64,000 bases of DNA from a virus (Duplodnaviria > Caudoviricetes). Below the pieces are notes generated by a model, which saw only the letters and a list, made by a program, of their open reading frames with translations, was not told the DNA's origin and searched no databases. Shown one piece after another: positions 5,666 through 46,765 of the stretch (within the stretch, counting starts at the first letter, position 1; each line of letters starts with the position of its first letter). The position numbers and the translations under genes are program-made. The stretch lies in the IMG/VR virus record IMGVR_UViG_3300031992_004562, positions 47,626-111,625 of that record; one strand, written 5' to 3'.

Positions 5666-6235
5666 ATGAATAATAAACATTTATACAATAAAATTATAAA
5701 TGCTATAAATGAAAGTGTCTAGAATGCATTAAATGAATATAACAAATATGAAAATTCTGATCATCATCGTGGTGGCAATATTCATGATTTAAAATTTCTT
5801 GCATAGGTACTAACTAATAAATATGGTTATAAAGCATATCCTGTATCATCTACACTTGGAAAACCATATTAGTTAATTTTAAGAAGAGAAAGTGGAGTAA
5901 GAAAAAATGTTTATGTTCAACAACGAAAAAAGGGAACAACTTCAGGAAATATTGCATTAAGACTTAAAAAATATGGTGAAACATTATCATTATTAGACAA
6001 TCCAGAAATTAATGAAATTTGTTTGATATGCCCGCCTGTAATGAATTATGATCCAAGAGGTGAAGTAGTTGATAATACTAAAGCTTGTTTTTTTGAAAAA
6101 GATTATTTAAAAGATAAAGTTGAACATGGGGAAATTCCAATAACAAAAACACGAGATGGTGAAATGTTAATGCTTTCAGAAAAATGGATAAAAGAAAATG
6201 CAAAACAAATTATTTCATATAAATATATACGATAA
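5666..6235 (+). CDS. Hypothetical protein with variant leader B (MNNKHLYNKIINAINESVQNALNE), code 15
   Basis: ATG at 5666, three in-frame TAG, joins ORF 6023..6235; AATAAATA upstream. Confidence 0.75.
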
Positions 6236-6263: not shown

Positions 6264-7115
6264 TTATAAATTTATTACTGGACGAACGCTAAAACCAATA
6301 TAACGATTGTTAGTGAATACACGGATATTGTCTGAATAGAAATGCAAGTACCAAGCGTAATTGGGAACGCCTAAATAAAGACTTGAAGACCACAAGTTAC
6401 AGCCAGAACCAATGCCGTAGATATCAGAATCATTATGATAACCAGCTGCAGGAATAAACAATTGATTTCCATTCTTTCCTTTAAATATCCTGCCATTTAA
6501 TCCTTGAATTCCTCCATCAACTTTTAGATTATGCTTTATTTTATTAGGATTATAATTATTAACCCAATAACTATGAGTATAATTTATTAATTCTATATAC
6601 TGTTCTTCAGTTGGAATATGAAATTTAAAATTATGTAATTTTTTATTCTAGTAAGCAGCATCATCTTCAGGCAGTAATTCTGTTAAATTATCAGTAAATC
6701 CCCAAGTTTTTGTTATTTGATTATATCCCTTTTGAGGATTATTACAATATTTTGTTAAACAATCTTTTTCAGATAAATCTGTATAGTGTTCTGCATATTT
6801 ATATGTAGACCAACTGAATTCTGGTTTATTTGGTTTCAATTCGCCCCATGCATAATATCCACCATACCAATCTTCGGCTTTAGACAACTAATTCTAATTA
6901 ACTCCTAAATTATATTTGCACCATAAAGTGCCTGAAGGCAAACCTAAATCAACAACTTCTTTTATTAAATCATATTTCTATTTAATAACATCTTCTGCAT
7001 TAATGACATCATTATGTTGAGATAATGAACTAATTGGTTCATTATCTTCAAAATCATCAAGTGCAAGTTTAATGCCTCTATTTACAGCTTCTAATATCTG
7101 TTTATAATTTTTCAT
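6264..7115 (-). CDS. Leader A + DUF1566/FISUMP-like (C-type lectin-fold) protein, code 15; candidate DGR target
   Basis: MKNYKQILEAVNRGIKLALDDFED..VDLGLPSGTLW..YYAWGE..FIPAAG..GFSVRPV; continuous 283 aa with TAG=Q. Confidence 0.85.
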
Positions 7116-18184: not shown

Positions 18185-18550
18185 ATGTGGTGTTTAGAAA
18201 ATAAAATAGTTAATGGTATGTTTTTTAAACAAACCTGTGCAATTGCACCTGAGCAATATGATGTTTTTCTTGATGAAAAATATGTTGCATATGTTAGATG
18301 CCGTTGGGGTAAATTAAAAGTTAATCCAGTAAATATTGAATTAACTATTCCAAATATTGTTAATATATCAGATTTTGATTATGAAAAAATAATGGAAGAT
18401 AACAGACAATATGAAATTGGAATAGATTTTAATACACAAATTTATTTCAAAGAATGGAAAGACGATGAATTTAAATCAGATATTCCAAAAGAAGAATTTT
18501 TAAATATCGCAGATGCAATATATAAACATTTAGGAGTTGCTAATATTTAA
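18185..18550 (+). CDS. Hypothetical protein
   Basis: QTCAIAPEQYDVF..AYVRCRWG. Confidence 0.7.
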   Translation: MWCLENKIVNGMFFKQTCAIAPEQYDVFLDEKYVAYVRCRWGKLKVNPVNIELTIPNIVNISDFDYEKIMEDNRQYEIGIDFNTQIYFKEWKDDEFKSDIPKEEFLNIADAIYKHLGVANI

Positions 18551-18634
18551 AAAGAAGAGAATTGTTTCTCTTCTTTTTATTTAAATAATATTTTCATTCG
18601 TCTTATCATTACAGTATTAAATTTTTGATAATAA

Positions 18635-19726
18635 TCAAAAATCTTCAACATCATCAAGAGCCAATTGAATTCCTCTATTAACGGCTTCTAATAATGAATT
18701 TTCAAATTTTAAATTTAATATAAAGCTTTCAGATAATTTTTCTATATTTTCTTTTGAAAATGCTACAAATTTTTCAACAATTGAATTTACAAAATTTCTA
18801 TCAAGCCATGGATATTTTTCATATAAATATGTTGTGTTTATCCAGGTAAATGGCTATTTTTCGCCTGATGGTGTTATTGCAGTTCCTGTCATATATAATA
18901 TATTTTCAAGTGCAAATTCATTTTCAGATTTAGATTTATCTAATAATTGTTGTAAATCTGCAAGAAATTCTTTTTCGTCATCTGCAATTTCCTATATTGC
19001 CTCTTTAACTCTATGAACAGAATATTCTGTTCTTAAAAATCTTAATACATAATTATTAAGTTTTTCAGCTGTACCATCTTCATCTATAAAATACCATTCA
19101 GGCCTATCAGCTAATGATAAATCTGTAAATTGTCTAAATGCCATTTTATTTGGATCATTTGGATCTCTAAATAAACCACTTTGACCAATAGATTGTGTAT
19201 ATTTTTTAGTATGTGTTCTATTTTCATCTTTTGTTCTAGATGCATTTAAACCTTGATATTCTGGTTTACGTCTCCAATCATTTTCTGGATAATCGGTTTC
19301 AGCTTTGCCAAAACCATGTCTTAGACGAATATTCTATTCTTCATCACCCCATTCATGATATTTTGATAGAAATCTGCCATTTTGCATCCAACGGATAACT
19401 GTACGGCTAATCTTAATAATATGTACATCACCTTCAATATCCATTGGTGCAGAATTTCTTTGTCCTGCCAACACCTATGAATATTTTTCAGAATCTTTAA
19501 AAGATTGTAAACGACTTTTAAATCTTGGAGAATTTTCTAATTCTTTTCCAGAAAGATATCCAGTTAGTTTTTTATCATTTTCAATATTAACTTTCTTTCT
19601 TGAACGAGGCCCATATGATAATGCCCCATCATTTAAATAACCAATTGACACAAATAAATCATTTGGCAGTATGTTTTTTGTTAAAAATGGAATTATATCT
19701 TTACCAACTAATATACGTTCTTTCAT
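18635..19726 (-). CDS. Hypothetical protein with leader-A motif at its C-terminus, code 15
   Basis: 363 aa continuous frame with four TAG, ending LLEAVNRGIQLALDDVEDF-TGA. Confidence 0.82.
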
Positions 19727-19782
19727 ATATTTTTATACATTATATTCTTTTATTATTTATCATAATGTAATAAATATATTGA

Positions 19783-20736
19783 ATGGAAATAATTAATAAG
19801 AAAATAATAGAATCTGTTAATAGAGGCATATAGTTGGCATTAGATGATTTTGAAGATATTGATAATATATCATCTAATAAAAATGACATAGTGTCTTCTA
19901 GTAACTTTGATGAATATGTCAAATTTAGAAACATTATTAAAAAGATTTTAAATCATGATAGAGATCTTCCAAGAAAATTAGATGAAATTCGTGTATATAA
20001 AGAAATGATTAAATTACATGATGATTATGGTTTTCTTTATAAAGTTAATACATTAGATGAATTAAAATCTATTATTGAAAGATTTATAGATATTTGGCCA
20101 GTTGCCACAAATAATTTTAACTGGCTAGATGTTTCTTCGTTAACAAGTTTGCAATATGCATTTAGTTCAGCATCTATAAGAGATAAAATTGGCAAAGTAA
20201 TTATAGATGAATGGAATGTTTCTAATGTAAAAGATATTCAATTTATGGCATGGCAATGCGCATATTTTGAAGCAGATTTATCTAAATGGAATGTATCTAA
20301 TCTTGAATATGCAGGCGGTGCATTTTTAGGATGTAAAAAATTTAATTCAGACTTATCTAATTGGAATGTTTCAAATTTATATGATGCATCTTCAATGTTT
20401 TTATATTGTGATAATTTTAATTCTGATTTATCTAGATGGAATGTTTCTAATTTAGTAGATGCATCTTAGATGTTTAAAGAATGCAAAACATTTAATTCAG
20501 ATTTATCTAATTGGGATGTTAGTAATGTGCAAAATGCTAATATGATGTTTTATGATTGTGAAGCTTTTAATTAGGATTTGTCTAAATGGAATTTAGCAAA
20601 ATGCAATAATGGAAATAGAGATTAGTGGTTTAGATAGGTATTTGCATATACACCAATGGAACATGAATATGATTTATATCCAGATAAATTATTAACTGAT
20701 AATATGAGAATATAGGCTACAATGAAAAAGAAATGA
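19783..20736 (+). CDS. Leader A + DUF285/BspA-like leucine-rich repeat protein, code 15
   Basis: MEIINKKIIESVNRGI(Q)LALDDFED; FNSDLSNWNVSNL repeats; FN(TAG)DLSKWN = FNQDLSKWN. Confidence 0.88.
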
Positions 20737-21473
20737 AAAAATTTAATAAACATATATTAGAAGCAGTAAATAGAGGTATCTAGTTAGCTTTAGATGATTT
20801 TGAAGATATAGAAGATAATAATACTTTATCTTCAAAAAATGATGTTATAGATAGTGAAGATGTTATTAAAAACAAAATTGATTTATAGAATTTTGTTGAT
20901 CTTGGTCTACCATCTAAAACATTGTGGTATAAAAGAACATTAGGTGAAACTGATAATACTTTTGGTGAATGGTACGCATGGGGAGAAATAAAACCTAAAA
21001 ATGTATATGCTTGGCATAATTACAAATATGCAAAAAGAAATGAAGAGAATTTAACTAAATATTGCAATGATAAAGTTGATGGATATAAAGGATTTACAGA
21101 TAATAAAGAAACTTTAGATTTATGCGATGATATTGCATATTTAACAAATAAACATTTTAGAATTCCTTCAAGTAATGATTTTGAAGAATTATTAGATAAT
21201 TGTAACTATGAATGGATAACTGGTGATACAATTGGAATCATATTTAGGTCAAGAAAGAATGGAAATGAATTATTTTTTCCTGCATCTGGATTTATTAACG
21301 ATTATGGATAGGTTGCAGAACGTGGAAAAACTGGATTATTTTGGGCAAATAATATTTCCAGTGACGCATTGCCAGAATAGGCGTATTGCTTAAGTATTGA
21401 ACAGGCAAGTAATGCAGTTATAATGGCAGATAGATGTTTAGGCTTATAGATTAAACCAATATGGGTATGGTAA
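20733..21473 (+). CDS. Leader A + DUF1566/FISUMP-like protein, code 15
   Basis: MKKFNKHILEAVNRGI(Q)LALDDFED..VDLGLPSKTLW..YAWGE..FFPASG; ATGA overlap with previous gene. Confidence 0.87.
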
Positions 21474-22258
21474 AGAATAATAAAATATTAGAAGCCATTA
21501 ATAGAGGTATATAGTTGGCACTTGATGATTTTGAAGATATAGAGAATAATAATTCTGTATCTCAATTAAGTGATGTCATAAATAGTGATGATGTAATTAA
21601 AAATAAGATAGAATTTAATAAATTCTTTGTTGATATGGGATTTCCATCTGGAACTATATGGGCTAAATACAATTTAGGTGTTAATCCATATAGAGGACTA
21701 TTTATACCTCAATCTTATTATGGTAATTATTATGCATGGGGCGAAACTAAACCAAAAAATAATTATGATTGGAGAAATTATAAATTCATTTCTAGTATAA
21801 GTCCTCTTAAATTTAAAAAATATAATGGTAACAGAAAAGATAGAGAAACTCTTGATTTGCGTGATGATGCGGCATTTGTTAATAACCCATATTCAAATAT
21901 CAATGTTAGAGTGTGCCTTCCAACACCTGAACAAATTATTGAATTACAAATACATACAGATAGAGAACTTGTACATAATTACAAAGGTATTGCAGGATTA
22001 AATGTTGTAATTTTAACATCTAGATGCAATGGTAAAAAATTGATGTTTCCTCTTGGAGGATTTAAAGATGAAGAACAAACGAAATATGTTGGTGAAACTG
22101 GTTTTATAATGTCAAAATATATGGATAAACAATATAATCATAGGGCATATGGAATTAGTTTTTAGATTAAATACACTGGAGGAAAACATTTGGATTTTAA
22201 ATTTGATTATATTGGGAAAAAGACTGGTGTAAATGTAAGACCAGTAATAATGAAATAA
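21467..22258 (+). CDS. Leader A + DUF1566/FISUMP-like protein, code 15
   Basis: MVKNNKILEAINRGI(Q)LALDDFED..VDMGFPSGTIW..YAWGE..GVNVRPV. Confidence 0.87.
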
Positions 22259-24807: not shown

Positions 24808-25137
24808 TTATTCTTCATTATCATTATCAAATTCTTCTTCTGTCTCATCAAATGGGCCTTCCATTCCTGACAATATATCAGCAGCTTCACCTAAGCCATC
24901 TGCTAATTCACGAACATAATCAGATAATTCTTCATATGTTTCACAACTTGTGAAAGCACCACGACGGCATGATTCGACTTCATACTTCAAATCATAGATT
25001 TTATCTAAGACTTCAGTTAAGAAATCTAATTCATTCTCATCCCATCCATCCATTGTAGATTCATTAAGAGCTTTTTTAACATGGGTTGATACCGCTTTCA
25101 TAACGCTCTCAAATATTTTTTTATTTTCTCTAGTCAT
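24808..25137 (-). CDS. Leader B + acidic hypothetical domain
   Basis: MTRENKKIFESVMKAVSTHVKKALNE; ATG at 25137. Confidence 0.8.
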   Translation of the reverse strand: MTRENKKIFESVMKAVSTHVKKALNESTMDGWDENELDFLTEVLDKIYDLKYEVESCRRGAFTSCETYEELSDYVRELADGLGEAADILSGMEGPFDETEEEFDNDNEE

Positions 25138-25930: not shown

Positions 25931-26003
25931 TGCCCCATTGCATAATGGCAGTGCGCATGACTCTAAATCATGGTCAGTCTCGGTTCGATTCCGAGTGGGG
26001 CTG
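25931..26003 (+). tRNA. Amber suppressor tRNA (anticodon CUA), probably Gln-charged; CCA not encoded
   Basis: Cloverleaf: GCCCCA/TGGGGC acceptor, GCAT/GTGC D-arm, CATGA-CTCTAAA-TCATG anticodon arm, CTCGG-TTCGATT-CCGAG T-arm, G73. Confidence 0.93.
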
Positions 26004-26052
26004 CAAATAAAACAGATAAATTTTTATATTTATCTGTTTTAATTTTTAATAA

Positions 26053-30189: not shown

Positions 30190-30981
30190 TTATTTCATTA
30201 AAACTGGTCTTACAAAAACACCATGTTCTCTTGCTATTGTATCAATACGTATTCTATTATCTTTTTCAATTTGCATACAATAATATAACCAATCAAACGC
30301 TTCAGGATATATATAACTTGTCATATAATATCCATAATTTAAATTTGTTAAGTTTACATTAATTGAATTTTCATTCTAAAGATACCCATGTATTGGAAAT
30401 ATTATTTCATTTCCATTTATTTTAGAGGTTAATTTACAAACATATAAATTTAAAACACCATTGTATGTATAATGAAAAGATTTTATTGTATTGGCTAATA
30501 ACTCTTCATATTGATCTATAGTTGGTACACAAATATTTACATGATATTTTTTATATAAATTGGAATTATATGCTGGGTCATCGCATAATTCTAATTTCAT
30601 TAATTTATCATCTTTATTATATTTAATATAATGATCTATAATATTTCTATTATTAATAGTTCGTTTTTCTAAAAATTTATACTATGTTGTTATTTTAGGT
30701 TTTAATTCACCAAATGCATAATAATCTCCATACCAATCAGCAGCTATTTCTAAATTATTAGGATTAACACCAAGATTATATTTTGACCACAACGTTTTAG
30801 ATGGAAGACCTAAATCGACAAAATTTTTCATTAACTCTATTTTATCATTGATGACATCATTTACATCTATAACATCATTACTCTAAGATATAGAATTATT
30901 ATCTTCCATATCTTGATAATCATCAAGTGCCAACTAAATACCTCTATTGACTGCCTCTAATATTTGTTTGTAATTTTGCAT
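30190..30981 (-). CDS. Leader A + DUF1566/FISUMP-like protein, code 15
   Basis: MQNYKQILEAVNRGI(Q)LALDDYQD..VDLGLPSKTLW..YYAFGE..GVFVRPV; 263 aa. Confidence 0.87.
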
Positions 30982-34768: not shown

Positions 34769-34784
34769 AATAAATATATTGAAT

Positions 34785-35783
34785 ATGAAAAGATTTAATA
34801 AGCAAATATTAGAAGCAATCAATAGGGGTGTTTAGTTGGCACTTGATGATTTTGATTATAATGAAGATATAACAAAATCTAAAACTGATATAATTAATAC
34901 TGAAGAATATGCATTTAGTATTATAAACACATTATATAAAAAACTAACATCTGAAATATTAACTGTTTAGGAATTAGACCGTTTGGTACAATATTATCAA
35001 ATAACAAAGCAAAAATATAAAGTTTATTCTAGACAAGAGCTAAAAAGAATTATTGATTATGTAATTGGTGTTTATCAATCTGGTGATTTTGTTAAAGGAC
35101 TTAATCCTGATATAAAAACATTAAATTGGATAGATGTTTCTGAAGTAAAATATATGGATGAACTATTTAAAGGATTATAGTTTACATCAGATATTTCTGA
35201 ATGGGATGTTTCTAATGTTTTAACAATGTCAAATATGTTTGAAAACGCTACATTCACTTCAGACATTTCAAAATGGAATGTTTCTAAAGTTACAACAATG
35301 TATGGAATGTTTTCAGCATGTAATTTTGAAAGTGAATTATCTGATTGGGATGTTTCCCATGTAACTGATATGGGACATATGTTTTTCATTTCACCATTTA
35401 ATGGAGATATTTCAAAATGGAATGTTAAAAATGTAACTAATATGCCATATATGTTTTATGCAGCTGTATATTTTAATCAACCAATTGGAAAATGGAATAT
35501 GTCCAAAGTTAATAATATTGATGGTATGTTTAATATGGCTAGTAGTTTTAATTAGGATATTTCTAAATGGAATATTTCTAATGTTAAATCTTCTGAGCTT
35601 GCGTTTAGCAAATCTGGATTTGATTAGGATTTATCTAAATGGGATGGCGGAAATTTATCAATGACTACATTTAAAGGCAGTAAGATTTCTTCAAATCATT
35701 TACCAAAGTTTTGGCAAGAAAATGAAATGAATTTAGATGGCAAAAGAATATTAAATACATATTTACCAAAAGATTGGAATTAA
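34785..35783 (+). CDS. Leader A + DUF285/BspA-like LRR protein, code 15
   Basis: MKRFNKQILEAINRGV(Q)LALDDFD; FNGDISKWNVKNV repeats; FN(TAG)DISKW. Confidence 0.88.
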
Positions 35784-36502
35784 TGAAAAATTATAATAAA
35801 ATATTAGAAGCCGTTCATCGTGGTATTTAGTTAGCACTCGATGATTTTGAAGATATAGAAGATAATAATTCTATATTTTAGAGTAATGATGTCATTGATA
35901 CAGATGATTATATAGATGATAGAGTTACATATAATAAATTATTAGAAAAGTTTTTTGATTAGATGAGTGATAGCTTAGTTATAAAAGTATCTAAAGATGA
36001 TTTAAAAAAACTTGCAAATTTATCCAAAAATCTTGGTATGAAATTTAAAGTTGAAGATAATAGATTTTTACAAGATATAATTAAAACTGTTTGTAGAATA
36101 GATAAGTCTGCAAATTTAAATTGGATTGACACATCAGAAGTAACCAATTTTGAAAATCTATTTAATATGACACTATTTCATGGTGATATTTCAGAATGGG
36201 ATACACATAATGTCAAAAACATGTATTCATGCTTTGCTTATTCTCAATTCAATGGCGATATATCAAGATGGGATGTATCAAATGTTGAAAATATGAATTG
36301 GATGTTTTAGGGTTCTTGGTTTAACAAACCAATTGAAAATTGGAATGTAGCTAAAGTAAAAAGTATGAATGGAATGTTTAGTGAATCGCATTTTAATTAG
36401 AATATATCTAAATGGAATGTTGCAAATTGTAAAGGTTATATAAAATTTAATAATAAAAGCACATTAAAAAAATCTAATATACCACCAAAATTTAGAAAAT
36501 GA
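35783..36502 (+). CDS. Leader A + DUF285/BspA-like LRR protein, code 15
   Basis: MKNYNKILEAVHRGI(Q)LALDDFED; FNGDISRWDVSNV; TAATG coupling to previous gene. Confidence 0.88.
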
Positions 36503-36504
36503 TT

Positions 36505-36909
36505 ATGGACTCAAATAAGAAAAAACAATTATATGAATAGATTATGACTTCAGTTTCTAAAGAAGTCAAAAAAGTTTTAAATGAAGCACGTGCTAAAAAA
36601 TATGAATTCTCTAAAAAAGATTTAGATGAAATCAAAAAGTATATACTAAATGATGAAGATTTTTATAAAACATATTGTCAATATGCAAATTTAGATAGAT
36701 ACGATTCATATGAAGAAGCAGTAGATGATGTAATGAATTTTTTAGAATAGGATGTGTATACGGGTGATCCAGAAGATGATTTAGTAGTCCATAAATGGTA
36801 TATGTTAGATGAGCCTGATTTAGGGTGTTCATGGATGCAATTAAAATCTGGCAAAATTGCAAATTTAGATAATATATATAAAGAATTCAAAGGAATGATT
36901 GAAGAATAA
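36505..36909 (+). CDS. Leader B + hypothetical domain, code 15
   Basis: MDSNKKKQLYE(Q)IMTSVSKEVKKVLNE; two TAG. Confidence 0.8.
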
Positions 36910-37377: not shown

Positions 37378-39303
37378 TTATGTTAATGGTGTATATTTTG
37401 TAAGTGTTCTTGATAATTTATTTGATTTCTTTTCTTCAAATTTAATATTAAATGCTGAAATTCCAGATATGCTTTGTTTTTCTGAATATTGTGTTCCATT
37501 TTTATCTAAGAACCCACCTCTAACTAATGGAAGAATGTCTTTAACATTCATTATTTGTCCATTATTGTCTTTAATGGTTCTTGTTAAAATAATATCTCCA
37601 TATCCATCAATACCATCAAAATTATTTCCATAGATATTTTTATTATTTACATCTGCAACAAATTGTGCTTTAACAGAATCTACTCCAGGAACATCATTTT
37701 CAAATATAGAAATAATATCAGAAATAGGAATCATATCTTTACGTTCTCTATTTATAAAGTATTCTGATAATTTATCTAATGCAGCTGCATATACTTCTTG
37801 TTCATCATAATTTTCCCAAATTTTAACTTGAACATTTAATGCAAATCTTGCAATTTTTGGTTGAATTATTCTATTTTCAAGTGTTATAATTCGTTGACCA
37901 GATGCATTAATTAAATTAATAATATTTTCTTGTTCATCTTCTGATAACCAGAATAATGATTCATCACATGTAAAATAATTTGAAGATGATGGCATACGTT
38001 TTTTAATATCTGGAACTAAGAAAATATAAATTGTATTATCTCTATATGTGTTATCTGATAATTTTGTAGATGTGTATTTATACATCTAATATTTCTTTTC
38101 CATTTCTTTATGAGCCTACGCAACTTCTTCACTACCTTCACCATAAATATTAATCGCATCGTTATATAATGCTCTGGCATCGGTATAATCTTTATAAGCT
38201 TTATCACTTGCTAATTGCATAACAGATGAGCCATTAACAGTATATGATCCTCTAAATATTTCAATATCAGAAAACATATTCATTCGTCTAAAGAAATAAT
38301 TATAATTTACTTCAGATGCTAAAACATATGAACGACTAACATGTGGAGCAATTAATTGTGTTAATGCAAGATCTTCACCATATGTTCCAAATATAATATC
38401 AGTTGTCAATCTAATTTTGAAATTTCCATTTAATTTAACAGCCTCACCTGTAGGAAGAACACCAGTTCCATCCCATTCCCAATTATCTGCAATATTTACA
38501 TCATTCATAAATAAGTTGGAGTTTTCACCATCTGTGACAATATATTCAATAATAATTGTAGATGATTGAGGAGGAATTGCACCCATTGCACCATTTCCAA
38601 AAAATACATCAAGACCGGAATTAATGCCTGTACGAACTACACATCCTTTTTGATTAAATCCTAAATCTAAAATAGATTTATAAATTTCCCATGGTTCACC
38701 ATTTACATATACATTAATATAATATTGATCAACTTCTTGATAATTTCTTTCTGCAAAATTATATGATTGTAGTGGTTCACCTGTACCTGTTGCCTATTGA
38801 AGTTTAATTTCACCCTAAATTAAATTTGCATCAATATAATTGCCTGCATTCATTGTTATTTTTGCATTATTAGCACCAAATAAAAGTGTATAAGTTAAAC
38901 CATTTCTTTTACTAATTACCTTAGTTTTATTTGGAATATAACAAACACCACCATTTAATTGATAGTTTCCCGTATCAACATAATAAATTTGACATGCACC
39001 GCGAGCAGAAATTGGCCGTGAAGTATCATGCCCAGCCAACTATGCCAAACCTTTAACTTGGTCTGGACGGTATGCAGTACGAATATTTAAACCCGTAATA
39101 GAATCTTCAATATAATAAAATATCATTCTTCCAAGATGAAGAATAACTTGAAGCAATTGGCCAAAAGGTGATGCAGTATTAAATTCTTGCCCTGCAGCCT
39201 TATAAGTTGACTTGATATAAGCCAATGCGTCATAATACAATTCACTAAATTTTATTCTATTTAGTTTAAAAATTTTTATTTCTTTATCATCTTTATTAGC
39301 CAT
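37378..39303 (-). CDS. Baseplate wedge protein, T4 gp6-like, code 15
   Basis: Four ORF fragments in one frame; LA(Q)LAGH..AR; VFFGNGAMGAIPP..IEY; 641 aa. Confidence 0.8.
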
Positions 39304-44683: not shown

Positions 44684-46765
44684 TCAAATTTTATTATCAA
44701 TATTTGTAAAGATTGTTGAAAGCATTTTAATAATAGAAGTCATATTTAACACTTTAAGATTTGGTTTGTTATTTAAACTAAATTCATTATTAATAGAGTT
44801 TGTTATGGCTTCATGATTACTAGAATAATCTGTCATTCCATTTACTCTTAATAATCTTTCTTTTGAATCGCATGCCCAACCAAGATTTGGGCAGTGAATA
44901 TCATATCCATTTTCAATTGCATATGAAATATATGTTAAGAATTTATATAATTGATTATATGTATTTAATTTCATGCCAATATCACCAAAATTAAATGGAT
45001 AGTAGCCACCAACTGTTGAATAATAACCATATTCAACATAATTAAATCTCATATTATATAATAATGAAATATTAGGTTCTTCAAGTGGTTTTTCGTCCTC
45101 ATTTAAATTTTTATTATAATCCTCAACATATTGTTTATATAAAAGATATATAAATCGTTGAATAATTAAAAATTCATTATATACATGATTATCAACGTCT
45201 GATTCAATTATAGAACCTGGATAATTGCCAAATGCATATAATAATTTTCTACATAAGTATACTAATAATTCATCATTTGGATCATCTAAACGTTGTTTAT
45301 CTATTATTAAATCATTATCTTCCCAAACTAAGTTAGGCTTTATACCAAGCACCAAATCTTTAATCATTGATAATTCATCTTTTGTCAATTCATCAAAATC
45401 ACGTTTTTCTCCATTTTCATCTGTGTATTTTATATTAAATCTGTCATATATAAACAAATTATCAACAATAAAATCATATGTTGGATATACACCATAACTA
45501 TTCATAGAACTATCAACATTTAAACGCTTACAATGTTTATAAAATGTATTGGTAAAATTATAAAATGTTGAAAGCCATTGTTGCTCATAATCATTTGTGA
45601 TTTTATCTACATCAATTCCATTATCTTTTAAAATCAATTTAACTACTGGTAAATCTAATTTGCGATATGGGTCTTTTGACTTACGTTCTTTTGCCATTGT
45701 TCTAATTGATAATAGATTTGGTGATTTTGCATTAATACTTTCAAAGTGTTCAATAACATTCTATGGTAAAATATCTATTAAATAATTTTTTGCAAAATTC
45801 TCAGCTGTTGCAATATTCTATTTCTTTTTTGCTTCAAGATCTAATTTGCTATTTAATCTATTTTCAAATTCAACAATATTTTCATCATATGATGATTTTG
45901 TTAATTCAATGCCAAACTCTGTAAATACTAATGCATTTGCATCACAGAAGATTTTAGTGATTTTTGCAAAATCTTCAAATGAATTAAACATATTATAAAA
46001 TAATGGAATCTTTGTGCCATGTCTTAATTTACTATCAAGACCATTAAAATGCTCAACGAATTCAGATGTTAATTTTAATTCATCATCTATTTCCATTAAA
46101 CTCATACCAGGACGAACATCTGGTAAATAATATCCTTTTTTATTCCATACTGTTCTCCAGAATGTTATATTTTCAGTCACACCAATATATTCTAATGGGA
46201 ACTCAATACCTTTAACTATATCACTTGCAGATACTCTTGTACTAAAAGGCTTATCATAATTTAGACAACCAATATATACAGGCCCATCTTTATAATGTTC
46301 ACATATTTTAATAAGTGGATAACTAATATTTAAAAATTTTGAAGTTTTATATGTTGTACAGTTTCCTATATGTAATTCTTTTGTTTCATCATTTAAATCT
46401 ACATATAAGTCATGTTCATATTTTTTAGAATTACGTTCCTATATAATATTAATATATGCAAAATAATGTTTTTCACCATTAATAGTATATGTTTTCCATG
46501 CACATCTATTTGAAAAAGTTTTTTCATTTCCACTATTTATATCAATATCAACATCAATAGGTTTAAAAACATTTACTTTAAGAAATATTCTAAAATCAAT
46601 TTCAGTATCAATAATATCATCTAATGTACGTGATGACATTGGTTGTGAAGATGACGGATTATCCAATTCTTCATCATCAAAATCATCTAATGATAATGCA
46701 TATGTATGTTGTTTGCTTTCTAAAACTGAATTAAAATCGAATTGTTTTTTATCGAAATTGAACAT
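44684..46765 (-). CDS. Large hypothetical protein with divergent leader-A-like N-terminus, code 15
   Basis: Three ORFs in one frame joined by three TAG (693 aa); VLESKQHTYALSLDDFDD. Confidence 0.75.

Follow-up and report, generated by a model that had tools for sequence, protein, structure and literature searches.

A short peptide, leader A, heads seven genes in the 64,000-nucleotide stretch of DNA analyzed here (the window) and nine genes in the whole 111,625-bp viral contig from which the window is taken, the contig being derived from a giant Prevotella-type (Lak-like) phage. A copy of the same peptide also forms the last 20 residues of P0001, the product of a gene on the opposite strand to its leader A neighbor. 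The question raised by this locus is what a peptide known from the start of proteins does at the end of one, i.e. whether it is a working part of P0001, a leftover of recombination, or an element that acts in DNA or RNA. The features that bear on this question are listed in Table 1.

Table 1. Features of the window around the C-terminal leader A copy and the other tagged genes
Feature	Position	Strand	Evidence or remark
P0001 gene, late	18635..19726	-	363 aa, 4 in-frame TAG=Gln, stop TGA; megaphage family without annotation
C-terminal leader A copy, P0001 residues 343-363	18638..18700	-	profile, blastp-short, codon table
Divergent spacer between P0001 gene and first leader A gene, with ATAAATA motifs for both directions	19727..19782	.	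56 nt
Leader A + DUF285/BspA-type LRR gene	19783..20736	+	Pfam DUF285 1.6e-46
Two leader A genes, lectin-like (Fib_succ/Lcl_C-like) cargo	20733-21473, 21461-22258	+	
Suppressor tRNA, anticodon CTA, makes TAG readable	25931..26004	+	ARAGORN
Leader A gene, lectin-like cargo	30190..30981	-	
Leader A gene, Lys (AAA) replacing TAG-Gln, weak Lcl_C-like cargo	6264..7115	-	
Two leader A + DUF285 genes	34779-35783, 35774-36502	+	beside leader B gene and baseplate module
Baseplate wedge (T4 gp6-like)	37378-39303	-	phrog_219, 5.6e-14

Many long frames in the window are open only if TAG is read as glutamine, and the closest P0001 homolog on record is also encoded 'with_TAG=Q'. Translated in this way, P0001 has ...LLEAVNRGIQLALDDVEDF at its C-end, the stop codon being TGA. 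The late promoters of T4 have the sequence TATAAATA, and a late-type ATAAATA motif is located at position -34 of the P0001 gene and at -13 of the gene starting at 19783, against a background of 0.04 per 70 nt. The upstream motif and the four TAG codons point to late expression of P0001. The two genes are divergent, as the earlier note on this DNA had stated, and only 56 nt lie between them. At the other end of the P0001 gene, a 9-bp hairpin with a T-run behind it can be seen at 18552-18576, between the convergent ends of P0001 and a 121-aa gene (18185-18550), though a terminator scan of 18400-19900 called nothing.

The body of P0001 belongs to no Pfam or PHROG family, and the bodies of the 40 family members scanned gave no match to these collections either. 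An AlphaFold2 model, computed with an alignment of relatives as input (pLDDT 89, pTM 0.82), predicts an alpha/beta body followed by a single long helix at residues 310-362. In this model the tag forms the last turns of the 50-residue helix and protrudes at its end, with a pLDDT of 67-80 that is below the rest. The predicted fold has no convincing counterpart among known structures: the best Foldseek match in the PDB has E 0.2, the wide VIA search reached Z 4.9 for a partial Sm-like barrel, BFVD returned weak matches only, to uncharacterized phage proteins, and the sequence profile found nothing in the PDB below E 0.5.

The similarity between the tail and the N-terminal leaders was established in two ways. 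By blastp-short against six-frame segments of the window, the tail matches all seven leaders (starting at 7115-, 19783+, 20733+, 21461+, 30981-, 34779+ and 35774+) with E-values of 1e-8 to 2e-11, and the next-best unrelated matches in the same search have E > 2. An HMM built from the N-terminal copies only matches P0001 residues 342-363 with E 7.7e-12; the best reversed-sequence control has E 2. The tail is identical to the commonest N-terminal form in 17 of 19 residues. Together with the translation, these searches confirm the original observation that gene 19726-18635 ends in a leader A copy. One further, diverged copy is present in the contig beyond the nine N-terminal ones.

A conserved glutamine is encoded by CAA in the tail and by TAG in each of the six N-terminal copies with Gln at this site, the seventh having Lys (AAA), so that the codon difference described earlier holds for every copy with Gln. 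Among the 21 TAG-containing, presumed late genes of the window that were counted, TAG accounts for 98 of 321 Gln codons (30%). The invariant TAG of leader A may gate translation on the suppressor tRNA; alternatively, it may be mutationally trapped, since the route from TAG to CAA leads via the rare CAG or a stop codon. Synonymous sites next to the TAG vary freely among the six copies (19783-19863, 20733-20816, 21461-21550, 30900-30981(-), 34779-34870 and 35774-35860).

At the DNA level the leader A copies are 73-83% identical. Comparison of the tail with the seven N-terminal copies gives pS 0.58 and pN 0.13 (pN/pS 0.22), and for the first 15 codons of the tail pS 0.66 and pN 0.07 (pN/pS 0.11). 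The longest exact DNA run that the tail shares with any other copy is 9-14 nt, which shows that gene conversion has not taken place recently. Thus, the tail peptide is under purifying selection; it is neither a decaying remnant nor the product of a chance fusion, nor is it a site at which recombination now occurs. The possibility raised in the earlier note, a chance fusion to a decayed leader A gene, is contradicted by this ratio as well as by the orthologs described below, which keep the tail.

The tag helix is strongly amphipathic, with an Eisenberg hydrophobic moment (muH) of 0.58-0.61 (0.58 for the P0001 copy). The usual place of leader A is after the initial Met and a short basic stretch, the N-terminal copies starting with M-K-x-[YF]-N-K...[IL]-x-E. 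In all 41 public leader A proteins (135-431 aa, the size range searched) the tag starts at residues 4-20, and in P0001 it is the end of the protein. Because these 41 proteins uniformly carry it at the N-terminus, placement behind a body appears to be specific to the P0001 family. The P0001 frame stops after DDVEDF, without the acidic linker and cargo that are both present in its 63%-identical relative P0002. A minimal core of about 19 aa had been proposed on the basis of the P0001 copy, and this estimate proved too long. An 87%-identical ortholog on a 2.1-kb contig (L010) keeps only LLEAINKGI..AL before its stop codon, and P0022 keeps SEAINTGV..AL. Judging from these two reduced tags, the conserved core is about 13-15 aa, with the acidic DDFED part acting as a linker to the cargo.

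Downstream of leader A in the window, the cargo is a DUF285/BspA-type leucine-rich repeat (LRR) or a lectin-like domain. The leader A and leader B genes at 34779-36909 directly adjoin the baseplate module. Leader B (K-K-A-L-Y-E-S-I-M...) heads five window genes and about 20 genes in each Lak genome, where its cargoes are mostly small acidic proteins. The gene starting at 19783 is of particular relevance to P0001: apart from the first seven residues, its product is colinear throughout with the C-terminal half of P0002, a fused relative (residues 8-297 aligned with residues 346-624, E 2e-18).

Relatives of P0001 were collected with phmmer from 1.84 billion representatives. This search yielded 51 homologs, many of them full length and the best with 63% identity (E 4e-149), so that the family considered here has 52 members, namely P0001 and 51 cluster representatives. 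By tblastn, each of the 15 Prevotella Lak megaphage records proved to contain a single homolog. A search of IMG/VR with P0001 alone gave no match, and scans of IMG/VR and metagenomes with the alignment recovered only Lak-A/B/C-type loci and one close 2.1-kb contig. Profiles of leaders A and B built from N-terminal copies are significant in 12 of the 52 members, P0001 included, and always after the body; reversed-sequence controls across the family have E 0.8 or worse. Leader A stands behind the body in P0001 (at the C-end) and in P0002 (internally), and leader B in seven members at the C-end and in three internally, there followed by a cargo of 85-117 aa. The members with an internal tag and cargo are P0002 (leader A and DUF285) and P0014, P0015 and P0029 (leader B). 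The C-end of P0003 is an A/B hybrid, and in several other members a weaker helix resembling A or B stands at the C-end. No tag is recognizable in about half of the family.

Whether orthologs keep the C-terminal motif had been named as the check on its significance, and they do. The orthologs in Lak-B8, Lak-C1 and Lak-A1, whose bodies are about 30% identical to that of P0001 in full-length alignment, end in leader B and are the only C-terminal leader B copies in these genomes; 11 further representatives carry leader A or B after the body. At first look, leader A was not found in Lak-B8, Lak-C1 and Lak-A1, where leader B served as a positive control. P0002, which has the same synteny as P0001 and is also encoded with TAG=Gln, consists of the body joined exactly at the tag to a complete leader A DUF285 protein. 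In P0019 the body is followed by KKLNES and then by the cargo that stands behind leader B in the window (E 2e-21). The window gene in question (24811-25137(-)) has a small Cys-containing cargo that shares 48% identity with the P0019 C-terminal domain. Since the same cargo is found after the P0019 body via KKLNES, it could be delivered either by a tag or by the body.

A quick maximum-likelihood tree divides the family into two clades with 98% SH-aLRT support. In clade 1 the tag is behind the body, and the members with leader A (P0001/P0002) are nested among those ending in leader B. Members of clade 2 have a third helix (E-L-x-K-M-K-x-L-M-x-R-M-D) in front of the body. A profile of this helix built from N-terminal copies matches P0048 (E 7.6e-5) and P0044 (E 0.007) at their extreme C-ends, and both proteins belong to the tag-behind-body clade. 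The third helix is seen at the N-termini of P0028-P0050, often followed by L-N-E-S/A, and its carriers are standard-code relatives. Within one family, therefore, a tag helix occurs before, behind or between domains and changes class. The tag type also tracks the tag repertoire of each phage. The string EAVNRGIQLAL is common to the tail and the N-terminal leaders in the window; GIRLALDDF is found in tail and leaders alike in L042, and EAINTG in L046, a 660-kb Lak phage (JS_HB1_S134) whose ortholog ends in its own leader A variant. The family gene of L046 (10001-11200) sits among eight tagged paralogs, most of them in tandem (L046:3169-15906). The paralogs are about 310 aa long and start with M-K-D-L-Y-K-K-L-Y-E-A-I-N-T-G-I-Q-K-A-L; none of them belongs to a Pfam family.

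Taken together, the tag is an autonomous helical module that is under selection independently of its position. A signal confined to N-termini could equally be a translation or mRNA feature, and a tag behind the body removes this ambiguity: copies at the 3' end and inside ORFs exclude a role limited to translation start or mRNA, and since a conserved family carries the same tags behind its body, the information must sit in the peptide. The earlier interpretation of the motif as a protein-level one that does not need the N-terminal place is thus borne out, its further element, a docking helix, being putative, and the relatives that also keep the tag behind the body argue for a position-independent label. 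The narrower wording of this claim, that the motif works at either end, holds insofar as the motif is not bound to the N-terminus, but 'behind the body' fits better, given the internal copies in P0002, P0014, P0015 and P0029. Our preferred reading, in which our confidence and our doubt are about equal, is that the P0001 tail is a functional, selection-kept leader A copy, an autonomous amphipathic helix that serves as a protein-level address or docking label anywhere in the chain.

Several other explanations of the C-terminal copy were weighed against this reading. The C-terminal helix of P0001 could be an adaptor that bundles in parallel with the N-terminal leader A helices of the DUF285 and lectin-like proteins, P0001 being a constant virion anchor (e.g. 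at the baseplate or fibers) for swappable binding domains. P0002 would then be the covalent version of the complex, a Rosetta-stone fusion whose order of body, helix and cargo fits a parallel bundle. The family gene adjoins leader A genes in four phages (the window, L010, L042 and L046) and the tail co-varies by lineage with the neighboring leaders, but both adjacency and co-variation could also stem from shared descent and local recombination, and a family member in L045 has no tagged neighbor. The amphipathicity of the helix and the tag protruding from it are in line with bundling, and the cargoes are typical ligand binders, two of the leader A genes being located beside the baseplate wedge gene. 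The Lak-A/B/C orthologs, however, carry leader B, which for the most part heads small acidic proteins and not binding domains, and in many family members the C-end is occupied by other domains and there is no tag. We consider an adaptor role unlikely on balance. A recombination scar is less probable still. By this account, recombination of leader A cassettes joined a gene, at its 3' end, to an unrelated leader or whole leader-cargo gene, and the window copy is a functionless leftover after loss of the cargo. Three close relatives differ exactly at the joint: the window gene stops after the tag, P0002 continues into DUF285 within the same flanking synteny, and the L010 ortholog stops mid-tag, its second tag half degenerated, and is followed directly on the same strand by leader A genes, the first in another frame. 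From this comparison the body-tag joint clearly looks like a rearrangement hot spot. A functionless leftover is nevertheless difficult to reconcile with the purifying selection described above, the more so as synonymous sites are near saturation, and with the recurrence of a tag behind bodies of about 30% identity, with switches between A, B and the hybrid; moreover, no other family with such a scar is present among the 41 public leader A proteins of the size range searched (135-431 aa).

An element of DNA or RNA was also considered, in which the tail and the leader at 19788-19860 are the inverted repeats of an invertible segment that switches P0001 onto the DUF285 gene, or in which the leader is a mere translation or mRNA signal. 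An inverted repeat (I15) with arms at 18638-18710 and 19788-19860, 73% complementary, does flank the P0001 gene, and an in-frame fusion of body, tag and DUF285 exists in P0002. Inverted repeats inside coding sequence, where alternative C-terminal binding domains meet a constant N-terminal part, are known from the Mu G segment, the P1 C segment and the R64 shufflon, and the arrangement here is similar in this respect. Unlike in those systems, the arms have no more than 11 identical bases in common, and what is conserved is the peptide, the identity falling at non-synonymous positions. The longest exact run of 11 nt, the lack of an identical crossover core and the lack of an invertase or other recombinase among the scanned neighbors speak against an invertible segment. 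The retention of TAG in all six Gln-bearing N-terminal copies, though TAG makes up only 30% of Gln codons, could speak for a signal in the mRNA, but a signal for translation start would have nothing to do at the 3' end or within ORFs. Any explanation of this kind is highly improbable, and I15 results from the fact that the two divergent genes code for one and the same peptide.

If the tag is an address label, as we prefer to think, it would direct late proteins into the assembling virion, most likely into the prohead core, in the manner of T4's capsid targeting sequence (CTS). According to the account in PMC8442874, which cites Mullaney & Black 1996, the CTS of the internal proteins IPI-III and Alt is about 10 aa long, is cut by the prohead protease gp21 and is sufficient to load foreign proteins. 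Like the CTS, leader A is a short peptide common to otherwise unrelated late proteins (nine other copies in the contig, all N-terminal), and its N-terminal start is close to the 10-aa CTS in length and pattern. The Lak lineage also encodes a gp21-type Peptidase_S77, and [LI]xE motifs, as candidate cut sites, are found at the tag borders. Unlike the CTS, which is known only at N-termini, the tag is C-terminal in P0001 and internal in relatives; leader A as a whole has about twice the length of the CTS, and the stretch that is conserved best comes after the candidate cut site. The leader A cargo includes LRR and lectin-like binding domains. Cargo of this kind and the baseplate neighbors are more reminiscent of binding proteins displayed on the outside than of proteins inside the head, which counts against loading into the head.

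The head protease is the second component of the proposed mechanism. Peptidase_S77 (PF03420, gp21-type) was identified in Lak-B8 and Lak-C1 with 56-58 bits, above the Pfam cut-off, and no head protease, capsid or scaffold gene was found on the 111-kb contig, which is 22% complete by CheckV. The Lak-C1 protease (L043:205-1959(-), 584 aa) is composed of the protease domain, a very acidic low-complexity region and a C-terminal domain. In its ORF, LNE|A stands near residue 21, and INES/LNES directly follow the catalytic domain; the presence of [LI]NE[SA] on both sides of the protease domain suggests self-processing. The same motif marks the joints of the P0001 family. It occurs 18 times in 2,699 tail residues, six times in 1,031 residues of N-terminal extensions and once in 13,599 body residues, the composition-based expectation being 0.009 per 100 aa; the enrichment at the joints is about 60-fold. 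Three instances are found in the whole contig, all within the first 30 residues of an ORF. One of these ORFs (5666-6235(+)) starts with a leader B-like helix and has INES at residue 14. Every Lak leader B ends in [KR][KR][LI]NE. P0001 itself contains no [LI]NE[SA], and LLE|AV precedes its helix; leader A has no LxE at its end, and its best-conserved part comes after the only candidate site.

It can be proposed from these motifs that the tag is removed by the gp21-type head protease of the Lak phages, which would cut after [LI]-x-E. The candidate cut sites are LLE|AV, with which the P0001 copy begins and where this protein would lose its tag, and LNE|S, found where leader B ends and where body and cargo meet. 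The fused relatives with the order body, tag and cargo would then be small polyproteins. A similar processing is described for the giant phage SPN3US, of the SPN3US/phiKZ type, in which some head proteins have N-terminal propeptides of 20-24 aa that are cut by the gp21-like protease gp245 (PMC10052503). The cuts there are made behind A-x-E, Ser being favored at P1', and a propeptide is also removed from the C-terminus of the protease (PMC10052503). Short propeptides, x-x-E cleavage with Ser at P1' and a C-terminal propeptide are thus features that the two systems would share. The motif there is A-x-E, as opposed to [LI]-x-E here; no portable tag across unrelated proteins is described for that group, and no fusions of body, tag and cargo are known from it.

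Encapsulin cargo-loading peptides and the encapsulation peptides of bacterial microcompartments are comparable to each other, and the latter offer a further parallel to the tag. They are amphipathic helices of about 18 aa, found at either terminus and joined by a poorly conserved linker to unrelated cargo, and this description resembles the P0001 tag, a predicted amphipathic helix set off from the folded domain with N-terminal, C-terminal and internal copies. In CcmN the C-terminal peptide follows a disordered linker, as stated in PMC13185644 with reference to Aussignargues 2015. Encapsulation peptides bind a shell component, whereas for the tag binding to a shell is only putative. They further differ in that they have no sequence relation to the tag, serve a metabolic compartment rather than a virus particle and are not removed by a protease.

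Combining these elements, it can be speculated, with rather more doubt than conviction, that Lak-like megaphages possess a modular, bidirectional cargo-address system. Its tags (A, B and the third helix) would be interchangeable and could stand before, behind or between domains, and the P0001 family would be a carrier whose body-tag-cargo precursors are cut by the head protease at [LI]xE[SA] inside the particle. Such a system, if it exists, would unite in a phage the equivalent of microcompartment encapsulation peptides with the processing of polyproteins, and it would explain how dozens of different proteins are loaded into Lak-like particles. We found no description in the literature of such tags in Lak or other huge phages. 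New in this analysis are a tag behind the body that is conserved at the family level, switches class and is sometimes internal, a third class that moves between the ends, the motif enrichment at the joints and the core of about 13-15 aa. The P0001 family itself consists of widespread, unannotated megaphage proteins that are predicted to fold well. For experiments, the locus provides a natural pair of N- and C-terminal copies of one tag, the fused P0002 along with the unfused P0001, and a candidate cleavage motif.

Tag-like starts were also noticed in other proteins near these loci. In the baseplate region of the window, a 693-aa ORF (44684-46765(-)) without a Pfam or PHROG match has a diverged leader A-like start (..LSLDDFDDEELDN..). 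Upstream of the Lak-B8 ortholog (L001:1201-2415), a 404-aa protein has a leader B-like start, followed by a hydrophobic segment and a C-terminal half that is lysozyme-like by eye.
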